In this document: piece by piece, positions 12,087-58,139 of the stretch
How positions within the stretch are numbered: the stretch's first letter is position 1
Layout of the letters: every line of letters begins with the position of its first letter
Assembly (NCBI GenBank): GCA_030066175.1
Contig: JASJCC010000001.1
Location: 1 to 63,648, forward strand
DNA: 63,648 nt
Reading direction: 5' to 3'
Source of the DNA: Paracoccaceae bacterium
GTDB taxonomy: Bacteria > Pseudomonadota > Alphaproteobacteria > Rhodobacterales > Rhodobacteraceae
The notes under the pieces: model-generated
What the model saw: only the letters and a program-made list of their open reading frames with translations
What the model was told of the DNA's origin: nothing
Databases searched by the model: none
Program-made: the position numbers and the translations under genes

Positions 12087-12169
12087 ACGCTTACCTCTGA
12101 AACGACTGCTGGCACTGCCGCGTTCTTCATGTCAGAACCGGTGCGCGCGGCAATGAAGAGGGCAAAGGG

Positions 12170-14977: not shown

Positions 14978-14980
14978 CCG

Positions 14981-15912: not shown

Positions 15913-15951
15913 GACCTCTGCGCGCTGCTGATCAACAGCCGCCATCTGCGG

Positions 15952-32485: not shown

Positions 32486-33427
32486 ATGACACCCGGCAAG
32501 GCCTATCTGACATCCGACGAGATTCGCAGCCTGTCTGCCCGGTCCGATCTCTGGGGCACCTGGCTGATCCTGCATTGCTGGGGGCTGATCCTGGGGGCGG
32601 TGGCGTTGTTTGCGCTTTGGCCCAACCCGTTGACCTTTCTGTTGGCGGTGATCGTGATCGGATCACGGCAACTGGGCCTCGCGATCCTGATGCATGAGGC
32701 TGCGCATAACGCGATGTTCCGCACGCCTTGGCTGAACAATTGGGTCGGCGAATGGCTTTGCGGCCGGCCGATCCTGGCCGATCTGGCCGAATACCGGCAT
32801 TACCACCTGACCCACCACCGCCACACCCAGACCGAAAAAGACCCCGACCTGCGGCTGTCCAAACCCTTTCCCACCACCCGCGCCTCGCTGCGGCGCAAGC
32901 TGATCCGCGACCTCACCGGCCAGACCGGGATCAAGCAGCGCGCCCAGCAGATCATGTTTGCCTTCAAGATGGCGGGCGAGGTCGAGGGCCAGCCCACCGC
33001 GCAGGACCTCGCCCAGGCCTTTTCCGGCCCGGTCCTCGGCCGCGCGCTGATCGCCAATGCGGTGATCTTTGCCGTCTTCTGGGCTTTGGGCGCCTGGTGG
33101 TACTGGCTGGCCTTCTGGCTCTTGCCAATGCTGACATGGTTCCAACTGGCCCTGCGGGTGCGCAGCATTGCCGAACACGGCGCGGTCGAGTTCAGCGACG
33201 ATCCGTTCCGCAATACCCGCACCACGTTGGCCAACCCTCTGGAACGTCTGCTCTTTGCGCCTTATTGGGTGAATTACCATCTGGAGCATCACCTGATCAT
33301 GCACATCCCCGCCCACAACCTGCCGCGCCTGCATGCGATGTTGCTGGGCAAGGGCCTTGGCCCCAAAATGACCACGGCGCCGGGCTATCTGGATGTGTTG
33401 CGGCAGGCCACCTCCCGCCCGGCATGA
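32486..33427 (+). CDS. Membrane fatty acid desaturase family protein
   Basis: ORF 32402..33427, with the likely start MTPGKAYLTSDEI. Three histidine boxes are present: HEAAHN, HLTHHRH and HLEHHLIMH. Confidence 0.85.
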   Translation: MTPGKAYLTSDEIRSLSARSDLWGTWLILHCWGLILGAVALFALWPNPLTFLLAVIVIGSRQLGLAILMHEAAHNAMFRTPWLNNWVGEWLCGRPILADLAEYRHYHLTHHRHTQTEKDPDLRLSKPFPTTRASLRRKLIRDLTGQTGIKQRAQQIMFAFKMAGEVEGQPTAQDLAQAFSGPVLGRALIANAVIFAVFWALGAWWYWLAFWLLPMLTWFQLALRVRSIAEHGAVEFSDDPFRNTRTTLANPLERLLFAPYWVNYHLEHHLIMHIPAHNLPRLHAMLLGKGLGPKMTTAPGYLDVLRQATSRPA

Positions 33428-34314
33428 GCTATGCCCCCCACGACACCCTGATCGCCCCGGCCCGCCCCTCGGCACAGCTTTGGCGTCTGGGTCTTGGGAT
33501 TGTCGTGGCCATTGTGGTGATGTTCGGGCTGACCCGGGCGCTCTTTGGCGCGGTGCATTTCATCCTGGGCGAAGACGCGTATTGGAGCCTTCTCACCCTG
33601 CTTCAAACCGCCTCTACGCCCTTTGGCCTGCTGATCCTGCTTTTTAGCATGGGGTTCATGGCGATCGGCGTGCTGGTGGCGATGCAGATGGTGCATCGGC
33701 GCGGGGTGCTGCAGCTGATCGGGCCATTGGCCCTTGCCTGGCGGCAATTCCGGCGCGTGACCGTGGCGCTGGTATTGCTCTACGCGCTTGTGATGCTGTT
33801 GCCACCCTGGTCATACGCGGGCGAGACGCAGCCGGGTCTGGCGTTCGGCACCTGGCTGTCGCTGCTGCCGTTGACCGTGCTTGGGCTGCTCATTCAGACC
33901 GGCAGCGAAGAGCTGCTCTTTCGCGGTTATATCCAGTCGCAACTGGCCGCCCGTCTGCGGCATCCGCTGGTCTGGCTAACGCTGCCCTCGGCGCTTTTTG
34001 CGCTGGGCCATTATGCGCCGGGGGTTTACGGGCCCAACGCCCCGCTGATTGCGCTTTGGGCCTTTGTCTTCGGCGTTCTGGCGGCGGACCTCACGGCGCG
34101 CTCGGGCACGCTTGGCCCCGCGCTGGCGCTGCATTTCGTCAACAACTTCGTCGCCATTGCCATCACCTCGATGCAAGGCGACATGTCGGGCCTTGCGCTG
34201 TCGAAACTGCCCTTTGGTTCCGACGATATCGAGGCGGTCCGCGCGCTGCTGCCCCTCGACCTTGCGATGCTGATTGTCTCTTGGCTGGCCGCCCGGGTCG
34301 CCCTGCGCCTGTGA
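33424..34314 (+). CDS. CPBP (CAAX/Abi) family intramembrane metalloprotease
   Basis: This is the 3' part of ORF 32728..34314. The start MSYAPHDTLI (ATG 33424) overlaps the desaturase stop as ATGA. Family motifs are SEELLFRGY, FALGH and HFVNN. Confidence 0.8.
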   Translation: MSYAPHDTLIAPARPSAQLWRLGLGIVVAIVVMFGLTRALFGAVHFILGEDAYWSLLTLLQTASTPFGLLILLFSMGFMAIGVLVAMQMVHRRGVLQLIGPLALAWRQFRRVTVALVLLYALVMLLPPWSYAGETQPGLAFGTWLSLLPLTVLGLLIQTGSEELLFRGYIQSQLAARLRHPLVWLTLPSALFALGHYAPGVYGPNAPLIALWAFVFGVLAADLTARSGTLGPALALHFVNNFVAIAITSMQGDMSGLALSKLPFGSDDIEAVRALLPLDLAMLIVSWLAARVALRL

Positions 34315-43632: not shown

Positions 43633-44096
43633 GCCGCGCCCTCACGCAGGGCGGCGCGCATCTCACGCTCCAGAGCGTCGAGAAACCGCGCCCGGTCGGC
43701 TTTCGAAAACGCCCGCCCGCCGCCTTGGCGAAACGGGTCCGCCGCGCGCAGATCGGCCATCAGATCACGCGTCGCCAGCTGCGCGCCGATATTGGCTTGA
43801 GTCAGCGCCTCGCCATTATGGCGCAGCACCCGCGCGCCGTTTTCCACGCAGCGCGCCGCCAGCGGCATGTCCGAGGTGACCACCACGTCGCCGCGCCCGG
43901 CCCGGTCGGCAATCCACATATCGGCCACGTCCGGACCTTCGGGCACAATCACCACCTCGACCAGCGGGTTGCGCGACAACCGCAGCCCGCCATTGGCGAC
44001 CAGCTTCATAGGCACCCTGTGGCGGGTGGCGACGCGCTCGGCCTCGTCTTTGACCGGGCAGGCATCGGCGTCGACGTAAAGGGTCGTCACGCCCAC
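43629..44096 (-). CDS. YaiI/YqxD (DUF188, UPF0178) family protein
   Basis: 155 aa. [11 protein letters not shown]... and [10 protein letters not shown] are typical of the family. Confidence 0.75.
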
Positions 44097-44917
44097 AGCG
44101 CCTCGGCGTGAAAGGCGACGTGATCCTCCATGAAACTGGCGACAAAGAAATACGAATGGTCATAGCCGCGCTGCATGCGGAACGTGCCCTCTTGCCGCCG
44201 CTCCATCATCGCCTGGGCCAGCGCCTCGGGTTTCAACAGGTCGAGGAACTGGTCCTCACTGCCCTGATCCACCAGCACCGGCCCGTTGAACCCCGTCTCG
44301 CGCATCATCAGCGTGCTGTCATGCGGCGCCCAGGTGCTCTGATCCGCGCCCAGATAAGCGCCCAGCTGCTTGCGCCCCCAGTCGCTGGTGCTGGGATGCG
44401 CGATGGGGGAAAAGGCCGATACCGACCGGAACCGCCCGGGCAGGTTCATCGCCAAAGTCAAGGCGCCATGTCCCCCCATGGAATGACCGGTGATCCCTTG
44501 GCGGTCGGGGTCGATATGGCCGGCATCAGCCAGCAAGTCGGGCAGTTCAGTAGACACGTAATCCCACATCCGGAAATGCGGCGCCCAGGGTGCTTGCGTG
44601 GCGTTGACGTAGAACCCCGCCCCCTGGCCCAAATCATAAGCCTCGTCATCCGCCACATCGTCCCCACGCGGCGAGGTGTCGGGAAAGACCAAAGAGATGC
44701 CATGCTCAGCCGCCCAGGCCTGGGCCCCCGCCTTGATCATCGCGTTTTCATGGGTGCAGGTCAGGCCCGACAGGTACCACAGCACCGGCACCGGGCCGTC
44801 CTGCGCCTCTTCCGGCCGGAATAGTCCAAAGGTCATGTCGCAGCCACAGGCCGCCGAGGCGTGCCGATACACGCCTTGAACCCCGCCAAAACACCGGTTT
44901 TCCGAAACGATTTCCAT
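44087..44917 (-). CDS. fghA: S-formylglutathione hydrolase (esterase D)
   Basis: This is the 3' part of ORF 44087..45379, with the start [12 protein letters not shown] (ATG 44917) preceded by GGAGGG. It has [11 protein letters not shown], the nucleophile [10 protein letters not shown], and the C-terminal GYDHSYFF. Confidence 0.92.
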
Positions 44918-44961
44918 GCCGCCCTCCTGCCGTGGCCTTTCGGCCCGGTCAGCAGGGCCGC

Positions 44962-45579
44962 TTATGTGCCGTACCGTGCCATGAAGGTGTCGACAGCGCC
45001 ATCCACAATCCGGGTGATCTCGGCATCGGAAAAGCTGTCTTTCAGGCCAAAGATCAGCTTGGGCCAGAGGTCGGCCTTGCAAAGCTCGGCAAACTGGTCG
45101 GCGGCGAGGTCCATATCGTCGATCTGCACTTCGCCGCGCAGCATCGCGGCTTGCAAATAGGTCACCAGCGCCTGCCGCATCCGCATCGGGCCGCTTTGAT
45201 AGAATTGCCGCCCCAGATCGGGAAAGCGATCGGCCTCGGCCACACAAATGCGAAAGATGCGCTGGCCCATGTCGGAAAAGATAAAGCCCAGAAAGGTGCG
45301 CGCGACCTCTTTCAGCACCACGCGGGGTGGCTGGGTCAGGTCCATCGTCATCAGCGCGCCGTCCGCCTGGCGCTGACACTGCACCGAGGCCACCTCCATA
45401 AAGAGCAGGCGTTTGTCCGGGAAGTAGCTGTAAAGCGTGGCTTTTGAGACGCCGGCCGCCCGGGCGATGTCATCGACGCTGGCGCCTTCGAACCCGTCGC
45501 GCAAAAACACCTCGCGCGCGCCATCCAGCACCTGATCGAACTTACGCCCCTTGCGGACAGTGGTTGCCTCTGCCGTCAT
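44962..45579 (-). CDS. TetR/AcrR family transcriptional regulator
   Basis: 205 aa. The N-terminal HTH is FEGASVDDIARAAGVSKATLYSYF. Confidence 0.88.
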   Translation of the reverse strand: MTAEATTVRKGRKFDQVLDGAREVFLRDGFEGASVDDIARAAGVSKATLYSYFPDKRLLFMEVASVQCQRQADGALMTMDLTQPPRVVLKEVARTFLGFIFSDMGQRIFRICVAEADRFPDLGRQFYQSGPMRMRQALVTYLQAAMLRGEVQIDDMDLAADQFAELCKADLWPKLIFGLKDSFSDAEITRIVDGAVDTFMARYGT

Positions 45580-45958: not shown

Positions 45959-46933
45959 ATGCGTTTTTTCACCCAACGCCGGCATTTTGACGATCTGAGT
46001 GAGCAAGAGGTTCTGGCTCTGGCAATTTCCTCGGAAGAGGACGATGCCCGGATCTACCGGTCTTATGCCGAACAATTGCGAGAGGAATTCCCGGATACGG
46101 CCGCGGTCTTTGACGGCATGGCGGTCGAGGAGGACGGCCACCGCAAGGCGCTGATCGACCTGCATGCAACCCGCTTTGGCAATGTCATCCCGCTGGTCCG
46201 CCGCGAACATGTCGCCGGCTTTTATGCCCGCCGGCCGGTCTGGCTGGTGCAGAACCTTGGGCTTGAGCGTATCCGCGATGAGGCCGAGGCGATGGAGCGT
46301 GAGGCCGAACGCTTTTACCTGATGGCCGCCAAACGCACTTCGGATGCAGGCACCCGCAAACTGCTGGGTGATCTCGCCTCGGCCGAGGCCGGGCACCAGA
46401 GCCGCGCGGGCGAGTTAAAAGACGAACACTTGGATGAAGAGGCTCGCGATGCCGAGGATCGTTCGGCCAAACGCCAGTTCATCCTGACCTGGGTGCAGCC
46501 CGGTCTGGCGGGGCTGATGGACGGCTCGGTCTCGACCCTCGCGCCGATCTTTGCCACCGCCTTTGCCACGCAGGACACCTGGACCACCTTCCTTGTGGGT
46601 CTTGCCGCGTCGGTCGGTGCCGGCATCTCTATGGGCTTTACCGAGGCCGCATCGGATGACGGCCAGCTGTCGGGCCGCGGATCGCCGGTGAAACGCGGCA
46701 TCGCCTCGGGGGTGATGACCACCATCGGCGGTCTTGGCCACGCGCTGCCTTACCTCATCCCGGATTTCTGGACCGCCACGATCACCGCGATCATCGTCGT
46801 CTTCATCGAGCTGTGGGCCATCGCCTGGATCCAGAACAAATACATGGAAACCCCGTTCTTCCGTGCGGCGTTCCAGGTGGTGCTCGGTGGCGCGCTGGTC
46901 TTTGCCGCCGGGGTGCTGATCGGCAGCGGCTAG
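45959..46933 (+). CDS. mbfA: Membrane-bound ferritin-like / VIT1 (CCC1) fusion iron exporter
   Basis: ORF 45911..46933, with the likely start MRFFTQRRHF preceded by AGAGAGG. An N-terminal erythrin/ferritin-like domain (EEDDARIY...EEDGHR...EAGH) is joined to a C-terminal VIT1-type TM domain. Confidence 0.85.
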   Translation: MRFFTQRRHFDDLSEQEVLALAISSEEDDARIYRSYAEQLREEFPDTAAVFDGMAVEEDGHRKALIDLHATRFGNVIPLVRREHVAGFYARRPVWLVQNLGLERIRDEAEAMEREAERFYLMAAKRTSDAGTRKLLGDLASAEAGHQSRAGELKDEHLDEEARDAEDRSAKRQFILTWVQPGLAGLMDGSVSTLAPIFATAFATQDTWTTFLVGLAASVGAGISMGFTEAASDDGQLSGRGSPVKRGIASGVMTTIGGLGHALPYLIPDFWTATITAIIVVFIELWAIAWIQNKYMETPFFRAAFQVVLGGALVFAAGVLIGSG

Positions 46934-47022
46934 GGGCGGCGCAAAACGCTTGGGTTCCGCGCCCGCGCGATGCTATCCTGACGGGGTATTTCCAGTACCC
47001 GTTCAATTTTCAGGAGAGCCCC

Positions 47023-48219
47023 GTGAAACGCATCGTCATCCTGTGCGACGGCACATGGAACCGGACCGACACCCCAACCCCCACCAACGTGGTGAAAACC
47101 GCGCAGGCGCTGAAACCGATCGACGCAGTCGGGGTGGTGCAGATCCCGCTTTACATCCCTGGCGTCGGCACCGGTGAAGGCATCACCAAGCTCAGCCGCT
47201 TTGCCGACAAGGTGCTCGGCGGTGCGCTGGGCTGGGGGCTGATGGAGAATGTGGCCGACGCCTATCGCCACCTCGTCTTCATCTACGAGCCGGGGGATGA
47301 GATCTATGTCTTTGGCTTTTCCCGCGGCGCCTATACCGCGCGGTCGCTGACCGGGTTTCTGCGCTCCAGCGGGATCATCGCCCGCGACGACATCCACATG
47401 ATCCCCAAAGCGGTGAAACGCTATCGCACGCTGGGCGACGACAACCTGCACCCCAACACGGACGACAGCCACCGCTTTCGCGCCGACACGCTAAAATCCC
47501 GCGTCGCCACCAGCCAAAAAGAGATCGACTGGCGCGCCGCCAACGGCCGGGAAACGGTGCCGCTCTTGAAAGTGGTGTATCTGGGTGTCTGGGATTCCGT
47601 CGGCGCGCTGGGTGTACCGGCGCATATCCCGCTGCTGGGATCCCTGACCGCCCGCAAATACCGGTTCCACGATGCGAACCTGTCCAGCATGGTGAAATCC
47701 GCCCGCCACGCGATTGCCATCGATGAGCACCGCAAGTCGTTTCTGCCCACCAAGTGGGAAAACGTCGATCCTTTGAACGCGGAGAGCGGCAGCGCCGACC
47801 GGCCTTACCGCGAAGAGTATTTCCTCGGCGATCACGGATCGGTCGGGGGCGGGGGCGACATCACCGACCTGTCGGACATCGCGTTGGAATGGATGCTCGA
47901 CGGCGCGATGGAATGCGGCCTGCAATTCAGCGCCCAGCATCTCAGCGCCGTCACCCAAGGTTGCGACCCGATGGGGCCCTTGCGCAACACCAAAGAGGCG
48001 CCGACGGGGGGGATGAACTGGCTGATGCGCCGCAATCCCATCGACCGCCCCGGCCCGGACAGCCTGACCGAGGTGCATCCCAGCGTGATGAAGCGTTGGA
48101 CAGCCGAGGCAAAGTCTCCGGATTTTGAACCCTACCGGCCAAAAACCCTGCGCAATGTCGAACCCGAAATCGTCGCCTGGTACATAGATCAGACCGGCGA
48201 CACGACGCGCTTTGCCTGA
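47023..48219 (+). CDS. DUF2235 (Tle1-like alpha/beta hydrolase) domain protein
   Basis: This is the 3' part of ORF 46813..48219. The GTG start at 47023 follows CAGGAGAG. It has KRIVILCDGTWN and the GxSxG motif FGFSRGAY. Confidence 0.8.
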   Translation: MKRIVILCDGTWNRTDTPTPTNVVKTAQALKPIDAVGVVQIPLYIPGVGTGEGITKLSRFADKVLGGALGWGLMENVADAYRHLVFIYEPGDEIYVFGFSRGAYTARSLTGFLRSSGIIARDDIHMIPKAVKRYRTLGDDNLHPNTDDSHRFRADTLKSRVATSQKEIDWRAANGRETVPLLKVVYLGVWDSVGALGVPAHIPLLGSLTARKYRFHDANLSSMVKSARHAIAIDEHRKSFLPTKWENVDPLNAESGSADRPYREEYFLGDHGSVGGGGDITDLSDIALEWMLDGAMECGLQFSAQHLSAVTQGCDPMGPLRNTKEAPTGGMNWLMRRNPIDRPGPDSLTEVHPSVMKRWTAEAKSPDFEPYRPKTLRNVEPEIVAWYIDQTGDTTRFA

Positions 48220-48453
48220 GAGGCGGCATGCAGCTCCAGACCGCTCCGCAAAACCTGATCTGGATATACCGTTCTAGAGAATTGCGTTCTTGGGACGGTT
48301 CCGTTTCCGCATGTGCGGTCCGTCGCGTTTAGAGTCGAAATCCTGCGCTCAGTCCCTGACCTTTCTACGCAGCAGAAAATGGCAGTTATGAGCCTGGTTG
48401 AGCCACAACTGCCGAACAAACGGTAGCTGGACCGTGCACGCAAGACTTGCGCA

Positions 48454-49074
48454 TTGACAGCTAAGGCGCGGGCTTGTCACACTGGCATTGAAAACACGCT
48501 GGTTGTCGATTACGAGCGAGAGGTAGGGTATTTGAAACCATTCTCGATAAAAGACGGCTCTTTCAGTTTCCTTCCGCAGATATTCGTTTACGTCTTCGCG
48601 GCGGTTTTCATTCCGATTGGCAGTATCTACAAGATCGATGAACTAATTTTCGCTCTGATCGCTTTGTATCTATTCTACGATATTGCCTTTTTGCGCACAG
48701 CCGAGCGCTTCAAAGGAAGAGATATCGACTCCATTCTCGAAGACCTGAGGGCGGCTTGCGGGTACATGGCCTACTACCTGCCAATCGCTGCCCTGCTGAT
48801 TGCGATATCAAACGTGGAAAACGTCCAGAAAATTCTGGAAAAGGATAATCATATCTTTCACTACTTATTGATTGGAGTGGTCGCTGCTGCGGTCTCAACG
48901 CTCTTCATTCCAGTCCAATATGCTGTCGACACTTCCAAGCAACCGTCGTCTGCTTTGCGGCTGTGTTTTGTCTTTGTTTTGTTTTTGCAGAAAGTGTCGG
49001 TCACAGTGGTTGTCTGCGCCCTGATCCGCGCGGGTCATGTCGTCTGGCAATTGAGCCAACAGTCCGCTTCATAG
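48454..49074 (+). CDS. Hypothetical polytopic membrane protein in a low-GC islet
   Basis: 206-aa ORF with 4-5 hydrophobic segments. The start is uncertain: TTG at 48454, or TTG at 48532 after GAGAGGTAGGG. GC is 25/60 in 48601-48660. I recognised no family. Confidence 0.5.
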   Translation: MTAKARACHTGIENTLVVDYEREVGYLKPFSIKDGSFSFLPQIFVYVFAAVFIPIGSIYKIDELIFALIALYLFYDIAFLRTAERFKGRDIDSILEDLRAACGYMAYYLPIAALLIAISNVENVQKILEKDNHIFHYLLIGVVAAAVSTLFIPVQYAVDTSKQPSSALRLCFVFVLFLQKVSVTVVVCALIRAGHVVWQLSQQSAS

Positions 49075-49310
49075 GTGATTGTACCTTTCGTCGCCGACTT
49101 ACGTACAGGCTCTCTATGTCCGCACACTTGACCCCTGAGCGCCGCAGTTGAACTGCCGTCTGTAATGATCGGATTGGCGCTCGTGCCGGTCAAATGGTTA
49201 GAGGTTGATTTTTTTGCGAGCTTGTTTGCTACAGGCGCCGGAGATTACCTTGGCGCGGGGTTCGCCCCAATCCGCAACGGCCCCCAGCCTCAACGTTTTC
49301 GCCGAACGCT

Positions 49311-50213
49311 CTACCGCGCGGCGCGTTTTGTTTTCCAGCGGCGGTGGATCCAGAACCACTGCTCCATATTCTCGCGGATCAGCGCCTCGAGCCCGTCATT
49401 GACCGCCTGCGCCATGGTTTCGGGGTCGGTATGCGGAATGGGCTCTTGCACCACAATTTCGAAACTTAGCCCATCGGCTTTGCGTCGCGCATAGACCGGG
49501 ATCAGCGCAGCATTGAACTTCAGCGCCAGCTCAGCCGTCACGGTCGAGGTCCGCGCCGGTTTGCCAAAGAATTGCAGCCTCGGCTGTCCGGGGGCATGTA
49601 GATCCGTCAGGATGCCCAGCACACCGCCGCGTTTGACGTGGCGGACCATCTCCATCATGCCCTTGCGCCCCTGCTCGAACATCGGCGTGCCGATGGTCGA
49701 GATCGCCTGCACATAGTGTTCGTTGAAATAGGGGTTCGACAGCCGCCGATAGAGCGCGCCCATATCATGCCCACGCGCAATCAGCGCCGCCCGCGCGGCA
49801 TCGTAATTGCCGAAATGCCCGGTATTGAGGATCACCGGGCGCTGCTCTTCCCGCGCCGCCTCCAGTGCCTGCAATCCTGGCCCGGTAAAGCTCGCCTCCT
49901 GCGCGTGGCGCACAAAATCCGCGCCCGAGTAGATCTCGATCATCGTGCGGCCAAAGTTGTTGGGCACTTTGTGGCAGAGCCGCCGCACCTCGGCCTCGGG
50001 CAGATCGGGCATCACGTAGCGCAGATTGCCCCGAATGCGCCGTCGCCAACCGGCCAGCGGGCCAATCACGTGCTCGGCGATCCAGCCCATCAGCGGCACC
50101 CGCCAGCGGTAGGGCAGCACCCGGCTCAGCGCGATCAGCCCACGCAGGATGGCATCGGTCAGCCGGTCCCGCCACGTGCCGTCAAGCACCGTCTCTTGCT
50201 CTGCTGTGGCCAA
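49311..50213 (-). CDS. Lysophospholipid / lipid A lauroyl acyltransferase (LpxL/HtrB) family protein
   Basis: 300 aa. The family pattern is present, including the NTGHFGNYD (HX4D-type) acyltransferase motif. Confidence 0.8.
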   Translation of the reverse strand: MATAEQETVLDGTWRDRLTDAILRGLIALSRVLPYRWRVPLMGWIAEHVIGPLAGWRRRIRGNLRYVMPDLPEAEVRRLCHKVPNNFGRTMIEIYSGADFVRHAQEASFTGPGLQALEAAREEQRPVILNTGHFGNYDAARAALIARGHDMGALYRRLSNPYFNEHYVQAISTIGTPMFEQGRKGMMEMVRHVKRGGVLGILTDLHAPGQPRLQFFGKPARTSTVTAELALKFNAALIPVYARRKADGLSFEIVVQEPIPHTDPETMAQAVNDGLEALIRENMEQWFWIHRRWKTKRAAR

Positions 50214-50375
50214 GCCCTGCGCCTTTTGCTACACCGATGCCTCAGCCATAAGCGCCGCTTGCCCCCGGCGCAACAGCGTCGCACGTGCCGGGGTGGGTCA
50301 AGGACTGCCCCCGTGCCCGCGCGCCCGCCCGCCGCCCTGATTGACGCCACGCCACCCCCGTGCCACCTAGACCCC

Positions 50376-51299
50376 ATGCTCGAGGTCTTTCTGAAAACCG
50401 TGCCGTTCTTTGCGCTGATTGGCCTTGGCTATGGCGCTGCCCGCGCGCGGTTTTTCCCCGAAGAGGCGACCGCCTATCTAACCAAGTTTGTCTTTTACTT
50501 CGCCCTCTCGGCGATGCTGTTCCGCTTCTCGGCTAACCTGTCATTGGACGAAATCTTCGACGCCAATGTCGCCGCCGCCTACCTTTGGGGCACCGCCTTT
50601 GTCTATGCGGTGGCGATGGGTGTGGCGTTCCTGCGTGGGCTCGACACGCCCACCGCGGCGATCGAGGCACAGTGTGCCGCCATCGGCAATACCGGCTTTC
50701 TCGGCGTGCCGATGCTGGCGCTCTTGCTGGGGCAGGCGGCGATTGGCCCGATCATCCTGGTACTGGCGATCGACCTGATCGTGTTCTCCTCGCTTTTGGT
50801 GATCCTTGTCACCGGGTCGCGGGACGGGCGGATGTCACTTGCGATGCTGAAAACAGTGGGCCTTGGCCTGCTGCAAAACCCGATGATCGTGGCGATTGTG
50901 CTGGGCCTTGCCGTGTCGGCCAGTGGCCTGACGGTGCCTGCGGTGGCCAATGAGTTCCTGACCATCCTCGGCAACGCCGCCACCCCCGGCGCGCTCTTTG
51001 CCATCGGTGCGTCGCTGGCCACCAAATCCGCCGAACGCCTGGTGATCGCCGGCTGGCTCAGCGTCTGCAAACTGCTCTTGCACCCGCTCTTTGTCGCCGG
51101 GGCGGCGTTCTGGTTATTCCCCGTTACAAGCTTTCAGGCGGCGGTGATCATCTCGGCGGCGGCGCTGCCGGTGGCGGGCAATGTGTTTATCCTCGCCCAG
51201 CATTACGGCATCGCACCGCAAAGGGTCTCGGCCGCGATCCTGCTGTCGACCACGGCCAGCATCGTCACGGTCAGCGCGGTGATCGCGAGCGTCAGTTAG
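50376..51299 (+). CDS. AEC (auxin efflux carrier) family transporter
   Basis: This is the 3' part of ORF 49638..51299, with the start MLEVFLKTVPFFALIGLGY. The protein is polytopic. Confidence 0.85.
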   Translation: MLEVFLKTVPFFALIGLGYGAARARFFPEEATAYLTKFVFYFALSAMLFRFSANLSLDEIFDANVAAAYLWGTAFVYAVAMGVAFLRGLDTPTAAIEAQCAAIGNTGFLGVPMLALLLGQAAIGPIILVLAIDLIVFSSLLVILVTGSRDGRMSLAMLKTVGLGLLQNPMIVAIVLGLAVSASGLTVPAVANEFLTILGNAATPGALFAIGASLATKSAERLVIAGWLSVCKLLLHPLFVAGAAFWLFPVTSFQAAVIISAAALPVAGNVFILAQHYGIAPQRVSAAILLSTTASIVTVSAVIASVS

Positions 51300-52122
51300 G
51301 CCGCAGGATCGAGGGCAGCAATTCGTGCAGGCGGTTCATTTCCTGCCGGCAGCGATGCATTTCCCATGCCGCGCCATCGGCGCCGACCCGCACCGCGATG
51401 TCCGGCTCCAGCCGCGCGATATTGCCGCCGACAAAGATCAGGATCTTGGGCGCGGCCAGCCGCAGCTCCACCACCACCCGCGCCAAGGCCCGCAGCCGGT
51501 CTGGTGTTGCCGCCGACAACCCGACGATCGGATAGCCGCCCTTGCGCACCATGTCGCTCAGCTGCACCTCGGTGCTGTTCAGCCGCAAGTCGACATCCCA
51601 GCCATCCTTGCGAAAGATGTCCGCGGCCATGGTGATGCCCAGCACATGCTTTTCGCCCGGCACCGTGGCAAAGAGCGCGCATTGATCGCCGCGCGGCGCA
51701 AAGGCTGGCGCCAGTTCCCGGATATCGCGCAAGAGGTGCAGCATACGCCCCGCTGCCACCGCCATGTCACGAAAGGTGATGCGATCCTCATCCCACATCT
51801 CGCCCAGATGGCGCGCCGCGGCACCGATGTGCCAGAGGCACAGCTCTTCATGTGAGGCGCCCTGCGCATGGGCATCGAGGATCATCTGCTTGGGGATCAT
51901 CGGGTCTTCGCCGATCAGCGCGGCGCACAGCACCTCAAGATCGGGCGGCACCACCGGCGGGCGTTCGGCGGCCCGTTCGGCGGTCGTGTCCCGCGCCCAA
52001 CGCGCCAACCTGACAATCACCTCTTGGGCCAGAACCATGAGCGCGGCATCCGACAGCCCGGCGCGCGCCTGGCCTGTCGCGTCGCCCTCAATCGCCCGGA
52101 CGGGGATTGGCATGTCGATCAT
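51292..52122 (-). CDS. Cobalamin (B12)-binding domain protein with no recognisable DNA-binding or catalytic domain
   Basis: 276 aa. The C-terminal Rossmann-like domain carries an ExHxxG variant of the DxHxxG B12 motif (GEKHVLGITMAADIF) and ...IVGLSA... Confidence 0.65.
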   Translation of the reverse strand: MIDMPIPVRAIEGDATGQARAGLSDAALMVLAQEVIVRLARWARDTTAERAAERPPVVPPDLEVLCAALIGEDPMIPKQMILDAHAQGASHEELCLWHIGAAARHLGEMWDEDRITFRDMAVAAGRMLHLLRDIRELAPAFAPRGDQCALFATVPGEKHVLGITMAADIFRKDGWDVDLRLNSTEVQLSDMVRKGGYPIVGLSAATPDRLRALARVVVELRLAAPKILIFVGGNIARLEPDIAVRVGADGAAWEMHRCRQEMNRLHELLPSILRPN

Positions 52123-52601
52123 TCTGGCCCCTCATACAGACCAGCCGCCCAGTCTTTGACTGCGCGGCATCACTACCCCTCGATTTCCACGATGGCAAAA
52201 CGTGCGGGACCACTCAATGAGACCAAAGGCCACTCTTGACACGTGCAGCGGCCCGGCCGAAGCGCTCGACCGGGCCGCGATTCACGCCGCCGCAAAAGTC
52301 ACGATCTCCTCCAGGTCCCCGCCTCCGGTGCGGTGCCGGTCCCTCACCCCGAAAGGTGCGGGGGCTCTCACTCCGGTGCTCTGGCAGGGTGATCATGACG
52401 GCAAGCATGAATCCCCCCCTGCAGCTTCATAAGACCACAGCGAATCGGTTTGCGCCATGCGCTGGATCAAATTCGTTAACAATTGGGCGCGCCGCGACAT
52501 CAGTGGCCGCCCGCAAGATAGAGAGGCTGTCGGGTGTGCGGGTGATAGGGACTTGAGCAAAAGACACATGGGTCCTGACCGATCAGATGGGCCCACGCGG
52601 C

Positions 52602-52925
52602 CTAAAGCGCGTTTTGTGCGCGCGCGTGGAGCAGGTGAAGCCATGCATTGTCCACTTCCCCGGGCGCGGACCTTGGAAGCGGGGTTGGCGAGGTTTCGAT
52701 CAGGTGCACCAACGTCCAGGCCAGTCCAAAGCAATCATCCGCGCCAAAACAGTCCAACAAGGCCTCAGCTTCGGCATCCGTCACCGGTTGCGAGATCGCA
52801 TGCAACGCGGTTTCAGCCCGTGCAATCGCGTCCTGCCCGCTGTCAATGGAAGGCAGCGGGCCCAATTCCACAAACGATTTGACCTCCGGTCGCATGTCGC
52901 CTCTCCACCCGGCCTTCTGGTTCAT
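52602..52925 (-). CDS. Hypothetical small acidic protein (immunity-protein-like)
   Basis: 107-aa ORF. An alternative start at MRPEVKSF (52895) follows GGAGAGG. The sequence looks protein-like (DAEAEALLDCFGADDCFGLAWTLVHLIE). I could not name a family. Confidence 0.5.
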   Translation of the reverse strand: MNQKAGWRGDMRPEVKSFVELGPLPSIDSGQDAIARAETALHAISQPVTDAEAEALLDCFGADDCFGLAWTLVHLIETSPTPLPRSAPGEVDNAWLHLLHARAQNAL

Positions 52926-53158
52926 GAACGCCCAATCTTTGCCAACAGGTTACCAGATTTGGAGCGTGTGATTAGGACCACGCTGGTATGAGAGCAATGC
53001 GGTCAAGCCGTTGCCCGAGCATTCAGAAGGGATTCGGGCATGCGTTTCGCAGACCGCTCAAGGCAACAGGGTCCTATGAGAAAGTGGATTACCTATACGC
53101 TTGCCTTCCCGAAAAACCCAAGTATCCCTTCTTTTGCCTTTTCACCGGAGACATCCAG

Positions 53159-53761
53159 ATGCCCCCATTGTTGGCTCCTGCCGATACAACCCTACGGCGC
53201 AATCCGCAAGAACCACTTAGCTATCAGCTCTACGATACCTTCGAAGACTACCTGTCACCGCCCATTGAAGAACGCTTGAGAGAGATGAACCAAGCGTATC
53301 CCATCAAGGGGCTTTCCGCCTTTGTCTCAAACGGCGAAATCACCAAGGGCCAGTGGGTACTCTATACGCAGACCTGCCTTGTCGGACAAATCACCAATGG
53401 CGGCGTCGCGCAATTCATTGATAACTGCCCCGGCCTTATTCTGGATGCAGAGAAACTGTTATCCGAATTCGGCCCCAAAGAAATGCAGGATGCTTATTCG
53501 CTTGCTGCGCAACGCTTCCTCGATGTCATTGGCCAGCATGCCCGTCTCAATCCCGAGGCAACCGGGGATGATCTGGATCCTTTCTGGGCGGACCTTGAGG
53601 CCGCATGGCGTGATGATGACGAGGAACGCTTTCAGGCGCTTGAGGACGCTTGTTACGCGCCTGATCGGAACGATGACGCATCCAATTGGTTCACGCAGTT
53701 GGAAAAACACGTCTTGGATTGGGTCTTGGAAAATCCAGGTGACTTTGTCGCGGCCAGCTAG
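53159..53761 (+). CDS. DUF4375 / DMP19-like protein (tentative)
   Basis: This is the 3' part of ORF 52988..53761. The start MPPLLAP follows GGAGA. VGQITNGGVAQFIDN resembles the NGGF-Q-F-N core of DUF4375. Confidence 0.55.
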   Translation: MPPLLAPADTTLRRNPQEPLSYQLYDTFEDYLSPPIEERLREMNQAYPIKGLSAFVSNGEITKGQWVLYTQTCLVGQITNGGVAQFIDNCPGLILDAEKLLSEFGPKEMQDAYSLAAQRFLDVIGQHARLNPEATGDDLDPFWADLEAAWRDDDEERFQALEDACYAPDRNDDASNWFTQLEKHVLDWVLENPGDFVAAS

Positions 53762-53927
53762 GTGTCTGACAGCGATCTTACCCTGGTTTAGGATCGCAAA
53801 TGAAGCCGCATACCAGATTGGGCCGCGCTTTACGAAATCGGTACTGTTCGAGCGTGGATCTGCCAGGACTTATCAAGGCCGAGTGCAAACTGTTGGACAA
53901 CGTGCTGTGTTTTGCTAGCCTTCCGAA

Positions 53928-54248
53928 ATGAATAGAAAAACCCGCGGCATCGATGTCCAAGCCGAATTGCTTCCCGACGGAAGCTTTTCTCCAAAGCTCA
54001 TAGCCTTTCTGAAACAAGCACAGTCGGAAATGAACGCGCAAGCCGTTGATTTCAAGCAGCCCCCCTGGCGCGCGGTTCCGGACTACGAAAGGCATTCGAT
54101 GGGCTGGAGGATGGGCCCTGGAGAAGACTATTCTTTGGCTTTCGACTCCTGGCTGAAAGGCCTCAGCCCCGCGGAGTTTCAAGAATTTGTGTCGCAGCAC
54201 CCCGAGCCGGAGGGGTGGGAAGGCTTTTACAAAAGCATTCGTGTCTAA
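53928..54248 (+). CDS. Hypothetical small protein
   Basis: 106-aa ORF with protein-like sequence (PWRAVPDYERHSMGWRMGPGEDYSLAFDSWLKGLSPAEFQEF). The RBS is weak. Confidence 0.5.
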   Translation: MNRKTRGIDVQAELLPDGSFSPKLIAFLKQAQSEMNAQAVDFKQPPWRAVPDYERHSMGWRMGPGEDYSLAFDSWLKGLSPAEFQEFVSQHPEPEGWEGFYKSIRV

Positions 54249-54282
54249 TCCCGTGAAGACCGGAGTGTCCTGATCCGGCTGA

Positions 54283-54666
54283 TTTGTTGTCGGCAGCTTC
54301 ATCAGCACCGACCCGCTCGACCCTGACGCCCTGCCGCAGGACATCATCGCCAACGTGGTGCTGCTCAAAGACTGGATCGCCGCGCTGCTACAAACCCTCG
54401 CCGGCCATCCCCTCGAAGGTGACGCGCTGCGCGACCTGCGGGACATCCAGCTTGGCTAAATGGATGGCGAGGTCTCGAACTTGCTCAACGGCCGCGTCCT
54501 CCCTGGCGAAGACCCGGCGGAACGCGTGCTGCGGAACCTCGAAAAGCTGTATGTCCTGCTCGTCACCCAAACCGGCAAGGCCGAGGCCTGGGCAACCCAA
54601 CCCCAAGCCGCCTACCCAACATTCGAGATTGTCAAACTGCCCCTGGAAGGCAAAGCCAAACCCTAG
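54283..54666 (+). pseudogene. Reading frame with no start codon at its head and one in-frame TAA: a possible gene remnant, or two tiny coupled ORFs
   Basis: The frame opens after TGA 54280. It reads ...FISTDPLDPDALPQDIIANVVLLKDWIAALLQTLAGHPLEGDALRDLRDIQLG, then TAA (54457-54459), then in the same frame ATG 54460 MDGEVSNLLNGRVLPGEDPAERVLRNLEKLYVLL... through to 54666. Confidence 0.3.
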
Positions 54667-54741
54667 TGCGGTTTCCGCGCCCCGTCCGCGTGCATGTCCA
54701 CGGATGGCCCTGCCGCAGGCCCCATCATCAGAGTGGCCAAA

Positions 54742-55743
54742 TCAAAACCCCGACACCACGCCCGCGCCAATGGGCATGCCCTCTTCCACAATCACAAACC
54801 GTTGGAATTGTCCGATAGAGAGCGGCGCATCGAGTGTGATGGTCACCCAAGGGTTGTCCCCCGGATTCACTATTTCCGTTCCCTCCGACAATCTGATGGT
54901 CCCAACCACCGCACCGGATGAGAATTGAAAGGTCGCGCGGTGCTCACGGAAAAACGGCCTGCGTCGCCCGCCTTCGCCCGTGGTGAGCATATAGAGCTCT
55001 GAGTCAAAAGTGGTCTTGGGCGTGCCATCAGAACCCGTATCGGCAGCGGGTGCCTGCAAGATTTCCTTCTGCACGGCCGTCAGCAATTCGTTGATCTTCG
55101 CTTGCCCGTTCTCAGGGTCTCTGCCTTCCAGGGCGTCCAGAGCCGACCCGGCGATGATCGTCGTTTCCTCACCCGGATAGCCGTACGCGGAAAGCAGCTC
55201 TCGAATGTGCCTCTCGACGCTTTCCATAAACCCGACACTGCCCCCCGGGTAGTCATCGTTCACCATGTCTGTCTTGTTCAGAAAAACGACGAGGTTTTGA
55301 ATGCCGACCCTATTCCCAATTTCAAGATGATGTCCTGTCTGAGGCATAGGGCCGTCCGTGACGTTCACGACAAGAATGGCACCTTTTGGGCGCACATTTC
55401 CAAAGATCATCGACTTGATGATGTCCGCATGGCCTGGAAAGTCGAGCAAAGACACACTTGCGCCGTCCCAGCTGTACCCGACCTTTTGCCTAGAGTACTC
55501 GGTCAGCGGAGAGTCCGCCAGCGAGGCTTCGTTGATCTCAGGATAAGACAGATCCGCGCCATACGCAGACGATATCGCCGCAGCCAAGGTCGTCTTGCCA
55601 TGGTCCACATGCCCAATGATGAACACATCCGGCTCTGGCATCACTGCCGATGATTGCGCGCTTCCCCTCGCGCCAAGGGATACCCCCACCAACGCCGCCA
55701 CCCCCGACAAAAGCGCATCGCGTCGTTTCATGGTAAATGACAT
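54742..55743 (-). CDS. EF-Tu-derived GTPase paralog: G domain plus domain III, no domain II, with an N-terminal twin-arginine-like signal or anchor
   Basis: ORF 54742..55788. The start MSFTMKRRDALLSGVAALVGVSLGARGSAQS (ATG 55743) lies 7 nt after AAGGAG. G motifs are GHVDHGKTT, DFPGHADIIKSMI, GAILVVNVTDGPMPQT, NKTD and SAL. Domain III is recognisable from GEGGRRRPFF...NPGDN...IGAGVV. Confidence 0.8.
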   Translation of the reverse strand: MSFTMKRRDALLSGVAALVGVSLGARGSAQSSAVMPEPDVFIIGHVDHGKTTLAAAISSAYGADLSYPEINEASLADSPLTEYSRQKVGYSWDGASVSLLDFPGHADIIKSMIFGNVRPKGAILVVNVTDGPMPQTGHHLEIGNRVGIQNLVVFLNKTDMVNDDYPGGSVGFMESVERHIRELLSAYGYPGEETTIIAGSALDALEGRDPENGQAKINELLTAVQKEILQAPAADTGSDGTPKTTFDSELYMLTTGEGGRRRPFFREHRATFQFSSGAVVGTIRLSEGTEIVNPGDNPWVTITLDAPLSIGQFQRFVIVEEGMPIGAGVVSGF

Positions 55744-55903
55744 TCCCAATCTCCTTAGCTCAGCGAAACCGACGGCACCGCTGTTCAATCAGGGATAGAA
55801 TACAAAAGCTGGCACTGCCTGACGAGCCACCTCATCGCAGCCCGCCCCGCCCTCCGGCACGCCGGACAATCGGCACATGGTTGCGGCCAGCAAAAACGTC
55901 CCA

Positions 55904-55952
55904 CTGACGCGTCAGAACGTCGGACAGAATGGACCATACACGCGAATCGCGT
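55904..55952. promoter_or_regulatory. Two perfect palindromes in the divergent promoter region of the EF-Tu-like / TIR pair
   Basis: CTGACGCGTCAG lies at 55904-55915 and is flanked by direct AACGTC repeats. ACGCGAaTCGCGT lies at 55940-55952. Both are 33-81 nt upstream of the TIR gene's ATG. Confidence 0.35.
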
Positions 55953-55984
55953 TTAAGCTGCATCGGCAAACCCAAGTGATTGGT

Positions 55985-57532
55985 ATGACCAGCAAGATTG
56001 ACGTCTTCATCAGCTACAAACGTGAGGAGCGCGCTCTGTCCGAGCGCGTCAAACGCGCGTTGATCGATGCGGGCTACACGGCGGTCACCGATCTCAATAT
56101 CGGTAAGAATGACGAATTCGGCGACGCAATCGACACGATGATCCGCACGGCGTCGCTGACCCTGGTGCTCTGGACGCGCGAAGCGGCAGGGTCGGACTGG
56201 GTCCGCAAAGAGGCACGCCTGGCGCGCGATCTGCAAAAGGCCGGCAAGGGCAACCACTACCTCGGTGTGATGGTCGAAGATGTCGACCTCGACCTGCCGC
56301 CCGATCTGCGCGGCCTGCAGATGGTCGATATCCACGGGGGCGGGCTCGACGACGACGGGTTGGCGCAGGTGCTGGACGACGTCCGCGAGATCCTCGGCGC
56401 CGAGGCACGTCAAACCGCGCAAACCGCCGAGGCCGATAATGCGGCCCTGACCGAGGAATGGCAACTCTACATCCTCGCCCGGTCCATCAACGTCGCCGCC
56501 GCTTATGAACGGTATCTGCGCAAATACCCGCAGGGCGAGTTTGCCCAAGACGCCATTCTACAATTACAAAAATTAAGACCTTTAGCCTCGTTTCGACGTG
56601 GAGTAGGCAGTTTTTTGGCCAAATTGATGGATGCGCCCAGCGCCAAAACAGATTTGAATCAGCAAATCCAGGATAGTACATCAAATAAAAAAGTCGATGC
56701 CAAAAGCAATCGTAAGAGTAATTCGAAAAAGATATCAATAGCATCCAAGGTTACTCAGGACAGAGAAATTCTCAAAATCCGTGAAATTGATGGGCTCCTT
56801 ACTCACCAAGAAACTTCCATAGAAATAGATCCTCAATATTTGAAGTTTGCTCAACTTGCCTTGGAAAACCTAAAGCTAGATGAAAATACTTACGGTCTAT
56901 TGAGGGAGGTTTCTTTTTGCTTGGAGCTATCAATTTATAATGCATCAGATGAGACTTTTTTGCTTGAGTCCTTGCAGCTGCTAAGAGAGCAAATCTTGCA
57001 TCAGGGCAACGTTGACCAAGAACTGCGCCCGGACAAAAATCCCACCATACGGATTTCACTCAATTATATATCAAAGTCATTGCAATGCCTGGCGGATCGT
57101 TCGACACAAGATGTAGGTAACCAAACAGGAGAAAAGGAGTATGGAGAAATTATAATTCAAAACGAAGAAACGTTCACTGCAGTTTTAAATGCAAGCGAGG
57201 AATTGGAGGTTGTCTCTGATGATGCACTCAAAAGAGAAATACAAACGCTTAGAGAGATTTCAAGGAATAGCCAATCACCCTTGTCTGCACGAGCTCTGGC
57301 CGCCGGCAGGATCACAGCGCTTATCGCTAATGCATGGATTATTGCTACCGTTTCTCGCGTTAGTCAGACAGCAGAAAGGATAGACAACATAACTGAAAAG
57401 TCAGCGCGAATAATCAAAAATACTACAATAATTGTAGGCGGTAGTAGTGCCGCAGTCGCAACGGTAGCGTACCTCTCAAAAGCTGAAAACCTGAAAAAGG
57501 CCCTCTCTCTTTTGGAGAACCTCTTAAGGTGA
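55985..57532 (+). CDS. TIR-domain protein with a helical, low-GC C-terminal region ending in two hydrophobic segments
   Basis: ORF 55877..57532, with the likely start MTSKIDVFISYKREE (ATG 55985). TIR hallmarks are DVFISY and SDWVRKEA (W-x-x-x-E). A YbgF/TPR-like YERYLRKYPQGEFAQDA follows. From about 56555 onward the sequence is AT-rich and its domain is unknown. Confidence 0.8.
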   Translation: MTSKIDVFISYKREERALSERVKRALIDAGYTAVTDLNIGKNDEFGDAIDTMIRTASLTLVLWTREAAGSDWVRKEARLARDLQKAGKGNHYLGVMVEDVDLDLPPDLRGLQMVDIHGGGLDDDGLAQVLDDVREILGAEARQTAQTAEADNAALTEEWQLYILARSINVAAAYERYLRKYPQGEFAQDAILQLQKLRPLASFRRGVGSFLAKLMDAPSAKTDLNQQIQDSTSNKKVDAKSNRKSNSKKISIASKVTQDREILKIREIDGLLTHQETSIEIDPQYLKFAQLALENLKLDENTYGLLREVSFCLELSIYNASDETFLLESLQLLREQILHQGNVDQELRPDKNPTIRISLNYISKSLQCLADRSTQDVGNQTGEKEYGEIIIQNEETFTAVLNASEELEVVSDDALKREIQTLREISRNSQSPLSARALAAGRITALIANAWIIATVSRVSQTAERIDNITEKSARIIKNTTIIVGGSSAAVATVAYLSKAENLKKALSLLENLLR

Positions 57533-57644
57533 AACTGCCAGTGTCACTTGGCCCAAAGACACGAAAGCAACCAAAAATTGCTAGCAATGCCGTGGTTGAA
57601 AGAATGCGCATTAAGGGACTTCGTGCAATTCCGCCGGCGTGCTG

Positions 57645-58139
57645 CTACAACCGCCGATACATCACCAGCGCGTCCACCTCACCTTCGACTGGATGCCGGA
57701 AGGCCCCCGGCAACCGCCCGACCACGTCAAAGCCGGCGCGTTGCCAGGTCTCTATGGCGCGGGTGTTGGTGGCGATGACGAAGTTGTATTGCATGGCGGT
57801 GAAGCCAAACCCTGGCGCCACCTCCAAAGAATGCGCCAACATCGCCCGCGCAACGCCGCGGCCTTGGGCGGCAGGCGCAGTGATGTAGCCGCAATTGCAG
57901 ACATGTGACCCGCCGCCTTTCTGGTTGCGCACCATGTAGTAGGTGCCCAAGGCGACCCCGTCCTCTTCGGCGACAAAGACCCGCCGCTCCGGCCCGGTCC
58001 AATAGGCCAGGGCGTCGGCCTCTGAGATATCCGGGTCGATCGCATAGGTGTCGCCAGCGCGGAATACCGGCATCAGCATCGCCGTCACGACCTCGGCATC
58101 CTCGCGCCGATAGGGGCGGAGCGTGATCCCCTGCTTCAT
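57645..58139 (-). CDS. GNAT family N-acetyltransferase
   Basis: 164 aa. The acetyl-CoA binding motif is QGRGVARAML. Confidence 0.85.
   Translation of the reverse strand: MKQGITLRPYRREDAEVVTAMLMPVFRAGDTYAIDPDISEADALAYWTGPERRVFVAEEDGVALGTYYMVRNQKGGGSHVCNCGYITAPAAQGRGVARAMLAHSLEVAPGFGFTAMQYNFVIATNTRAIETWQRAGFDVVGRLPGAFRHPVEGEVDALVMYRRL

Follow-up and report, generated by a model that had tools for sequence, protein, structure and literature searches.

The window analysed here, a 63,648-nt stretch of DNA from a Paracoccaceae bacterium (contig JASJCC010000001.1), contains a gene in which a TIR domain and an AT-rich C-terminal half are encoded by one uninterrupted frame of 515 codons plus stop on the forward strand (positions 55985-57532). 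Our results indicate that this gene is very probably a mosaic, generated by the in-situ replacement of its 3' part. A longer open reading frame (ORF) could start from an ATG at position 55877; nearly all homologues instead begin at the Met encoded at 55985. The features of the locus are collected in Table 1.

Table 1. Features of the TIR gene and the DNA around it (positions in the window).
Feature	Position	Strand	Description and basis
Mosaic ORF (very probable)	55985..57532	+	TIR N-module fused to orphan AT-rich C-part; ORF list, homologue starts
Resident N-module DNA, codons 1-190	55985..56554	+	GC 0.632, GC3 0.82, resident codons
TIR domain, residues 7-129	56003..56371	+	Pfam TIR_2
Glu76 codon, motif S70-x-W72-x3-E76	56210..56212	+	Family alignment
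Helical hairpin and juxtamembrane motif	56453..56602	+	EEWQLY..ARSINVAAAYERYL..YP.GEFA.DA...QL......FRRG; alignments; junction lies inside
Probable 5' recombination junction	56552..56560	+	GCC / ATT CTA (Ala190 / Ile191 Leu192); change point, DNA alignment
Low-GC block, very probably acquired	56555..57615	+	1,061 bp, GC ~0.418; composition, codons, orphan status
C-terminal sub-module, residues ~390-507	57152..57505	+	Only part with a relative (P0036); phmmer, BLASTP
Hydrophobic stretch 1, residues 438-456	57296..57352	+	LAAGRITALIANAWIIATV; KD19 1.57, Hessa sum +3.6
Hydrophobic stretch 2, residues 480-498	57422..57478	+	TTIIVGGSSAAVATVAYLS, small-residue-rich; KD19 1.37, Hessa +4.0
5' synteny anchor, B12-binding-domain gene	51292..52122	-	Ortholog directly upstream of the L005 TIR gene
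3' anchor	57616..58139	-	Resident DNA resumes at 57616, GNAT gene 57645-58139; orthologous in L005, L009

The first-pass annotation of the window had pointed to an abrupt drop in GC content near position 56555, which was borne out in our analysis. At nt 56553-56555, at codon 190/191, the overall GC content of the ORF switches from 0.63 to 0.42 and its GC content at third codon positions (GC3) from 0.82 to 0.40 (z = 8.2 in a two-proportion test). A maximum-likelihood fit with two change points placed the boundaries at 56555 and 57615 and yielded segments with GC contents of 0.632, 0.417 and 0.628, and the change point in GC3 lies after codon 172 (2-lnL support: codons 170-191). In 150-nt sliding windows, GC amounts to 0.63-0.70 up to ~56450, to 0.36-0.47 from ~56600 to ~57570 and to 0.60-0.65 thereafter; it is back at 0.63 near 57615, ~83 nt beyond the stop codon. 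The spot counts reported previously (41/60 G+C at 56281-56340 and 21/60 at 56701-56760) were reproduced exactly. The 900-bp GC minimum of the whole 63.6-kb window (0.410) is found at 56551, compared with a next-lowest value of 0.499 elsewhere, a window mean of 0.632 and a standard deviation of 0.042.

Two null distributions put this break into perspective. Within the contig, we determined the best-split difference in total GC for the 51 other open frames of at least 300 codons, which averaged 0.055 +/- 0.022 and reached a maximum of 0.118, as against 0.213 for the mosaic ORF. For the second null, we used 66 complete homologous genes of reference genomes, in which the difference in GC3 between the N- and C-terminal parts was 0.046 +/- 0.068, with a maximum of 0.175, as against 0.42 for the mosaic ORF. 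A within-contig null for GC3 splits, based on stop-to-stop frames, was misleading, because the values of 0.31-0.38 obtained for other frames are artefacts, and the total-GC null was used instead. Four frames showed such GC3 splits with a flat total GC (44090-45469 on the reverse strand; 32710-34311, 46660-48216 and 16603-17697 on the forward strand). They were rejected as mosaics, since their low-GC3 parts encode Arg/Pro-rich nonsense and reflect frame or 5'-extension artefacts. The break in the TIR gene is real and far beyond chance.

The two parts of the gene also differ in their codon usage. Synonymous codon choice in the N-module corresponds to that of the resident genes (mean ln P of -0.92 versus -0.95), whereas the value for the C-part (-1.75) lies outside the range of every gene tested (-0.83 to -1.37), with the codons TTA, CTA, AGA and ATA each at 1.5-3.7%, compared with 0-0.3% in resident genes. 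The AT-rich C-part is nevertheless real coding sequence. Its 325 codons are open, with 11-22 stops in each of the other five frames; the probability of finding no stop is 1.5e-9, and the longest open run did not exceed 204 codons in 2,000 shuffles. In addition, its frame 0 shows an RNY-type signature, with a purine frequency of 0.64 and a G frequency of 0.30 at codon position 1. The low-GC block covers the gene from codon 191 to codon 515 and its stop, as well as ~83 nt of untranslated DNA on the 3' side, and the sequence past the junction reads ATT CTA CAA TTA CAA AAA TTA AGA.

The ancestral state of the gene is visible at two orthologous loci. The first, L005 (GCA_020630695.1; TIR gene at L005:8001-9812), shares the gene order and orientation of the window, Mem_trans(+), B12-binding(-), TIR(+) and GNAT(-), with protein identities of 68% for the B12-binding protein, 79% for the GNAT protein and 71% for residues 1-207 of the TIR protein. 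Beyond residue 207, its TIR protein is unrelated and consists of a coiled coil plus leucine-rich repeats (LRR). At the second locus, L009 (TIR gene at L009:6001-7674), identities amount to 65% for Mem_trans, 52% for the N-module, 54% for GNAT and 88% for ADH, and the C-part is of a third kind, unlike those of both the window and L005. The N-module diverges about as much as the housekeeping flanks and is therefore resident. At the DNA level, homology to L005 and L001 holds up to ...GAC GCC (56553/4) and collapses beyond; on the 3' side, the sequences can be aligned again only close to the GNAT stop (57645), which fits the composition boundary at ~57615. Together with the codon usage, these loci with their different C-parts uphold the earlier proposal that a resident-like TIR module has been joined to a foreign module.

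The N-module protein is 71-76% identical to the homologues P0002-P0013. Its TIR domain is recognised by the Pfam profile TIR_2 (residues 7-129, E 6.3e-19, 69.1 bits versus a cutoff of 28), and an AlphaFold2 (AF2) model built with the homologue alignment shows a predicted local distance difference test score (pLDDT) of ~90 over residues 1-200. All significant Foldseek matches are TIR domains of the enzymatic kind, including those of SPARTA TIR-APAZ, RUN1, AbTir, SARM1 and B. cereus TIR. Residue E76 is unchanged in 20/20 and, in a larger set, 65/65 family members and lines up with the Glu of 'DWVHKE' in C. elegans TIR-1, 'SWCLDE' in RPP1 and 'VLKE' in SPARTA TIR-APAZ, a position that we take to be that of the catalytic glutamate of TIR NADases (SARM1, plant TIRs). 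Judging from this alignment, the putative catalytic-Glu motif is intact in the mosaic protein. The ThsB_TIR and Thoeris III ThcB4 profiles scored below threshold (17.2 bits versus a cutoff of 21.2 and 19.3 versus 220, respectively), and no ThsA-like effector gene (SIR2, Macro or SLOG) is adjacent, the neighbours being EF-Tu-like, DMP19-like, GNAT and ADH genes. A tblastn match of the N-module at 3407-3697 (-) lies within a BatA/DUF4159 gene and was dismissed as noise. A helical linker after the TIR domain leads into a helical hairpin with the family consensus EEWQLY..ARSINVAA.YERYL..YP.GEFA.DA, and the AF2 model places helices around the junction at residues 145-168, 171-180 and 187-216. The TIR domain, the hairpin (Y..YL..YP.G) and the FRRG motif that define the family are all found within residues 1-206 of the mosaic protein.

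With the full-length protein as query, 5.8 billion proteins yielded 34 non-self matches, all confined to the N-terminal part (14-51% of the query); 13 of them are 71-76% identical over residues 1-~206. Homologues sharing the full-length architecture, which had been put forward as a potential counter-argument to a mosaic, did not turn up, as nothing matches over the full length. The C-termini of the matches vary, with LRR, PDZ, PG_binding_1, Sel1, TPR, MFS transporter or nothing recognisable. Among 185,579 species genomes, we found 120 relatives, mostly in Alphaproteobacteria, with taxa including Paracoccaceae, Sulfitobacter, Hoeflea, Hyphomonadaceae, Caulobacterales and Sphingopyxis. The family, defined from homologues P0002-P0028 and L007-L086, includes 65 complete ORFs, in which the C-terminal domains include FGE-sulfatase (13), OmpA (6), Sel1 (3), LRR (3), WD40 (2), MORN (2) and PG_binding_1 (2). 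In the alignment, the hairpin is followed by 'WYLHPFRRGN', a hydrophobic segment, a coiled coil and the variable domain. A transmembrane (TM) helix, defined by a Kyte-Doolittle hydropathy over 19 residues (KD19) of at least 1.6 within residues 140-300, is present in 49 of the 65 members, compared with a maximum of 0.51 in this region of the mosaic protein, which also lacks the coiled coil plus extracytoplasmic-type domain in profile and PDB scans of residues 205-515.

By their sequences, the relatives resemble single-pass receptors, N-in/C-out and with the TIR domain in the cytoplasm, because the helix comes after an Arg-Arg pair and the distal domains bind peptidoglycan or are of the PDZ or LRR type. 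No partner gene is conserved across 80 family loci, and since no neighbour is conserved across taxa, the family appears to be stand-alone. The 17 family loci of the Sphingopyxis group are syntenic. P0013, from a Sulfitobacter metagenome-assembled genome, is flanked by TniQ/TniB genes of the Tn7-like type (L003:1-3611) and a type I restriction-modification operon (11919-17101), a mobile/defence-island setting unlike the housekeeping setting of the window, L001, L005 and L009. One gene, L046:5986-7074 of Sphingomonadaceae bacterium 3R27C6, contains an internal stop and may be a pseudogene or reflect a wrong start choice. In the literature searched, we found no description of a family combining TIR, TM and periplasmic-type domains.

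The C-part of the mosaic protein is close to an orphan. A word search of 5.8 billion proteins revealed no relatives of this half, and residues 205-515 had no match in Pfam, NCBIfam, PADLOC, PHROG or PDB. Moreover, a blastp comparison of the C-part with all family ORFs uncovered no similar family C-part. A phmmer search over 1.84 billion representatives yielded one marginal relative, P0036 (E 6.6e-4 for the whole library), with 30% identity over 124 aa and a pairwise BLASTP E-value of 1e-11. The match corresponds to the last ~125 residues and includes both hydrophobic stretches. P0036 (L006:20-658), at the margin of a JGI metagenome contig with 67% GC, has a GC content of 0.57, below that of its neighbours; its reading frame runs out of the contig, so that it may belong to a longer gene truncated at the 5' end. 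A profile built with P0036, tblastn against phages and plasmids, and scans of JGI metagenomes and IMG/VR detected no further relatives of the C-half. Searched separately, then, the two halves behave differently, with residues 1-~206 matching the family and the C-part matching only P0036, marginally.

The description of the C-half as a Lys/Asn/Ser/Glu-rich helical region holds for its composition (K 6.8, N 6.1, S 10.0, E 8.4 and I 9.0%), whereas its all-helical nature is a low-confidence prediction, with a pLDDT of 30-75 in the full-length AF2 model and of 38.9 when the C-half was modelled alone. Similarly, the two hydrophobic stretches near the C-terminus are present as described, and both are about as hydrophobic as the presumed TM helix of close relatives (KD ~1.5). 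The membrane hairpin that they were suggested to form receives no support, given their marginal KD values, their positive Hessa values and the weaker hydrophobicity of their counterparts in P0036 (KD 1.27 for stretch 1 and 0.74 for stretch 2).

A clue to the donor comes from the sequence around the junction. The first 16 foreign codons spell the juxtamembrane pattern of the family, reading ILQLQKLRPLASFRRG in the mosaic protein, compared with RRQLGMFTWYLHPFRRG in the family consensus, and resembling LKRLKTVSYRIRKG in L015. The FRRG motif is encoded at 56591-56602 by TTT CGA CGT GGA, AT-rich synonyms of the TTC CGG CGC GGC in L005, and the chance of finding FRRG at the expected place is ~1e-5. 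Since the foreign DNA still encodes QL......FRRG, the most likely donor is a divergent low-GC member of the same family, a proposal to which we give about even chances. We hold an evenly balanced view, too, of the notion that the 5' crossover occurred via the conserved hairpin motif. Existing low-GC copies of the family count in favour of such a donor: L015:6001-7359 has GC contents of 0.46/0.42 with flanks at 0.59, L014:5989-6708 has 0.46 with flanks at 0.65, and L010:5992-7641 from Hoeflea alexandrii has 0.49/0.47 with flanks at 0.63. As these three genes are low in GC relative to their flanks, whole low-GC copies also move into high-GC hosts.

In the explanation that we favour, codons 1-190 would represent the resident, vertically inherited N-module of a stand-alone, Alphaproteobacteria-centred TIR family, whose ancestral 3' part, from nt ~56553 to ~57615, would have been replaced in place by a 1.06-kb fragment from a donor with ~40% GC. 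The swap would have eliminated the TM helix, coiled coil and ectodomain of the ancestor and brought in a predicted all-helical orphan module that ends in two weakly hydrophobic segments. We consider this explanation as a whole likely, a judgement that applies mainly to the mosaic origin of the gene. At the junctions, there were no marks of mobile elements, that is, no notable direct or inverted repeats, tRNA genes, transposase genes or Rfam matches, and no terminator-like site follows the stop codon.

Several observations weigh against this interpretation or parts of it. No donor sequence was found, and the origin of the block is deduced from composition alone. Past FRRG, the C-part has neither a TM helix nor similarity to family C-parts, which weakens the case for a family member as the donor. 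The 3' junction is contained in the window assembly only, because the one independent contig that covers the gene stops at 57448, within the block, and exact-protein look-ups of GNAT, ADH and both versions of the mosaic protein provided no second source for it. There is no Shine-Dalgarno-like site upstream of the start. PADLOC reported no system, just a weak match to the TIR part, and the locus is no defence island; the role of the gene in defence, as initially suggested, is accordingly not borne out by its annotation or its surroundings. Finally, the allele may be a recent non-functional fusion.

The last of these points is the most serious alternative, in our view unlikely, though far from negligible. 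It holds that the mosaic is real and that an accidental fusion broke a membrane receptor, leaving a gene in decay. In its favour, the TM helix of 49 of the 65 family members is missing, and the donor module, if normally extracytoplasmic, could no longer be exported. The foreign part shows no drift towards the composition of the host, which points to a recent event, the searches made found the mosaic allele in one genome only, and another family gene, that of L046, carries an internal stop. However, the ORF is intact over all 515 codons and has kept its predicted catalytic motif. Moreover, its last ~125 residues are conserved with P0036 at 30% identity, which argues that the C-terminal piece is a genuine protein module, and an in-frame join that keeps FRRG in register is more readily explained by homologous exchange between two functional genes than by chance.

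A second alternative, the assembly of an AT-rich kilobase from another organism in the sample into the contig, is highly improbable. The window seems to be a metagenome-type contig, and the 3' junction has no second assembly. Yet Logan contig L087 (run SRR11343826, 10,954 bp), produced by a different assembler, matches window positions 48928-57448 without a single mismatch over 8,521 bp and extends ~900 bp beyond the 5' junction; it ends 84 nt before the stop codon. The possibility of a chimeric junction, raised in the first-pass annotation, is thus met by an independent assembly at the 5' end of the block and by the window assembly alone at its 3' end. Furthermore, both flanks are syntenic with L005 and L009, so that a chimera would need two joins only 1.06 kb apart. 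The frame is kept and the foreign DNA continues FRRG in register, and a double chimeric join that is in frame and preserves this motif is very unlikely.

The remaining alternatives have a very low probability. One of them assumes that there was no transfer and that the C-half is native, with its low GC content resulting from a Lys/Asn/Ser/Ile-rich composition or a local mutational bias. The C-half is indeed enriched in residues with AT-rich codons, and milder drops occur in the C-parts of some relatives, such as that in L005, where GC3 decreases from 0.70 to 0.40 in the LRR part. However, the drop is as large at synonymous sites, as seen for GC3 and for the codons TTA, CTA, AGA and ATA, it extends 83 nt into non-coding DNA, and the switch occurs within ~3 nt. 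Moreover, the C-parts of the orthologues are unrelated, and the break is 2.4x the maximum of the 66 family genes.

It is just as improbable that the AT-rich part is a gene of its own that is started or transcribed from within. Its base composition is promoter-like, and Met216 offers an in-frame ATG. However, the two parts run into each other without a stop codon, and the number of promoter-like sites (4, against 2.1 +/- 1.5 expected) shows no enrichment, with a single site on the + strand, at 57012. Nor is Met216 preceded by anything that resembles a ribosome-binding site, and the family motif runs across the junction. We attach equally little weight to a polymorphic-toxin-like locus, whose C-terminal tip is swapped with silent cassettes and accompanied by an immunity gene, or to a target of a diversity-generating retroelement. 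A conserved GC-rich N-part, a motif and an AT-rich variable tip do recall Rhs/CDI loci (PMC3482391). However, the protein carries no domain for secretion or trafficking, its N-part being a TIR domain of the cytoplasmic type, and what follows downstream is an orthologue of a conserved GNAT gene rather than a cassette-linked immunity gene. In addition, silent cassettes, template repeats and second copies of either half are missing from the window (blastn and tblastn), and no reverse transcriptase is encoded nearby.

The region upstream of the TIR gene has several peculiarities of its own. A stretch of ~3.8 kb with a GC content of 0.52-0.60 (52123-55984), located between the B12-binding and TIR genes, is lacking in L005, so that the locus looks like an insertion hotspot. 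It contains a DMP19-like gene (52988-53761, +; PF14300, E 2.8e-10), an orphan ORF of 106 aa (53928-54248, +) and, divergent from the TIR gene, an EF-Tu paralogue (54742-55788, -) that comprises the GTPase domain and domain 3 without domain 2. This paralogue, which scores well under the EF-Tu equivalog cutoffs, carries an N-terminal twin-arginine-like signal (MKRRDALLSGVAALVGVSLGARGSAQ), and a truncated EF-Tu with predicted export is odd. We considered it as a functional partner of the TIR protein and rejected it, as it is missing from all other family loci. Further upstream, a gene for a Tle1-like phospholipase of the type VI secretion system (46813-48219, +; PF09994, E 7.6e-75) is followed by an ORF (48454-49074, +) with a GC3 of 0.58 and no Pfam match. 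This region (46813-49074), which is not found in L005, may be an effector/immunity insertion.

How the mosaic protein relates to known systems can be considered at several levels. Single-gene TIR systems with the architectures TIR, TIR+TM and TIR+TPR defend E. coli, and in the same survey, the combination of a TM helix with LRRs seems to be absent from bacterial TIR systems (PMC11350192). Like these stand-alone systems, the family described here has a TIR_2-type domain with the Glu residue, no conserved partner and variable accessory domains. It differs from them in several respects. The characterised systems are not sequence relatives beyond the TIR fold, and the present family has a highly conserved N-module, syntenic chromosomal loci and members that join a TM helix with LRR, peptidoglycan-binding or OmpA ectodomains. 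The closest match of the TIR domain, by both sequence profile (E 2.3e-6) and Foldseek (E 2.2e-5), is SPARTA TIR-APAZ (8qlo), with which it aligns at the Glu residue; unlike SPARTA, however, the protein has no APAZ domain and no Argonaute partner, and identity is ~21%.

With Rhs and CdiA proteins, the family shares a conserved N-part that ends at a motif and is followed by a hypervariable AT-rich C-part. In contrast to these toxins, the variable part here is no known toxin and comes without an immunity gene, a secretion domain or silent cassettes, and it is the conserved part, with its TIR domain, that presumably acts as the catalytic effector, so that the logic of the toxins is reversed. Relatives such as P0012 also recall the Toll-like receptors of animals, as they possess an LRR, one TM helix and a TIR domain. 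However, the order is inverted, as the TIR domain, which belongs to the enzymatic, Glu-bearing type, is N-terminal and the LRR C-terminal, and the allele in the window has neither the TM helix nor the LRR domain. The resemblance is only architectural and does not imply common descent of the whole protein.

It is conceivable that the C-terminal module controls the self-association of the TIR domain and that the clustered TIR domains would cleave NAD+, leading to growth arrest or abortive infection. Both steps follow the precedents of SARM1, plant TIRs, AbTir, SPARTA and the single-gene TIR systems of E. coli (PMC11350192). As the family has no conserved partner, the role of effector would fall to the TIR domain itself. 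An exchange of the C-module would then alter the trigger and, in the present case, the localisation of the protein. An NADase or defence function of the mosaic allele is possible, yet somewhat doubtful. More tentatively still, and on balance unlikely, the relatives could be undescribed single-pass receptors that sense envelope events and whose sensor halves are swapped as cassettes across lineages of different GC content. These receptors would combine a cytoplasmic NADase-type TIR domain with a TM helix and a periplasmic LRR, peptidoglycan-binding, OmpA, PDZ or FGE-sulfatase domain, and recombination would take place in the juxtamembrane motif. Within the same speculative scheme, the allele in the window would be a fresh exchange that imported its module from a low-GC member.

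The kind of event that we describe is known, as the mixing of domain architectures within bacterial TIR groups (PMC7075850) and the recombinational replacement of C-termini by AT-rich tips in polymorphic toxins (PMC3482391) have both been reported before. What is new here is the nucleotide resolution at which an in-situ swap of a TIR gene's C-half can be followed, with two orthologous loci still showing the ancestral state, as well as the fact that the imported module is a near-orphan and that the swap took away a membrane anchor.

Collectively, our findings thus capture a process that is assumed to drive diversity among immune-type genes and is usually inferred from domain catalogues. Module shuffling in an immune-type gene is seen here with both breakpoints visible, and the incoming piece has not yet drifted towards the composition of its host, indicating that the swap was caught early. 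They also expose a stand-alone, Alphaproteobacteria-centred family of TIR-TM-ectodomain proteins, for which we found no experimental characterisation in the literature searched, and a module of 325 residues that is essentially without relatives among billions of sequences. With one and the same TIR module occurring with and without a membrane anchor and joined to different C-halves, the family offers a natural comparison of how TIR proteins are controlled by their C-terminal parts.

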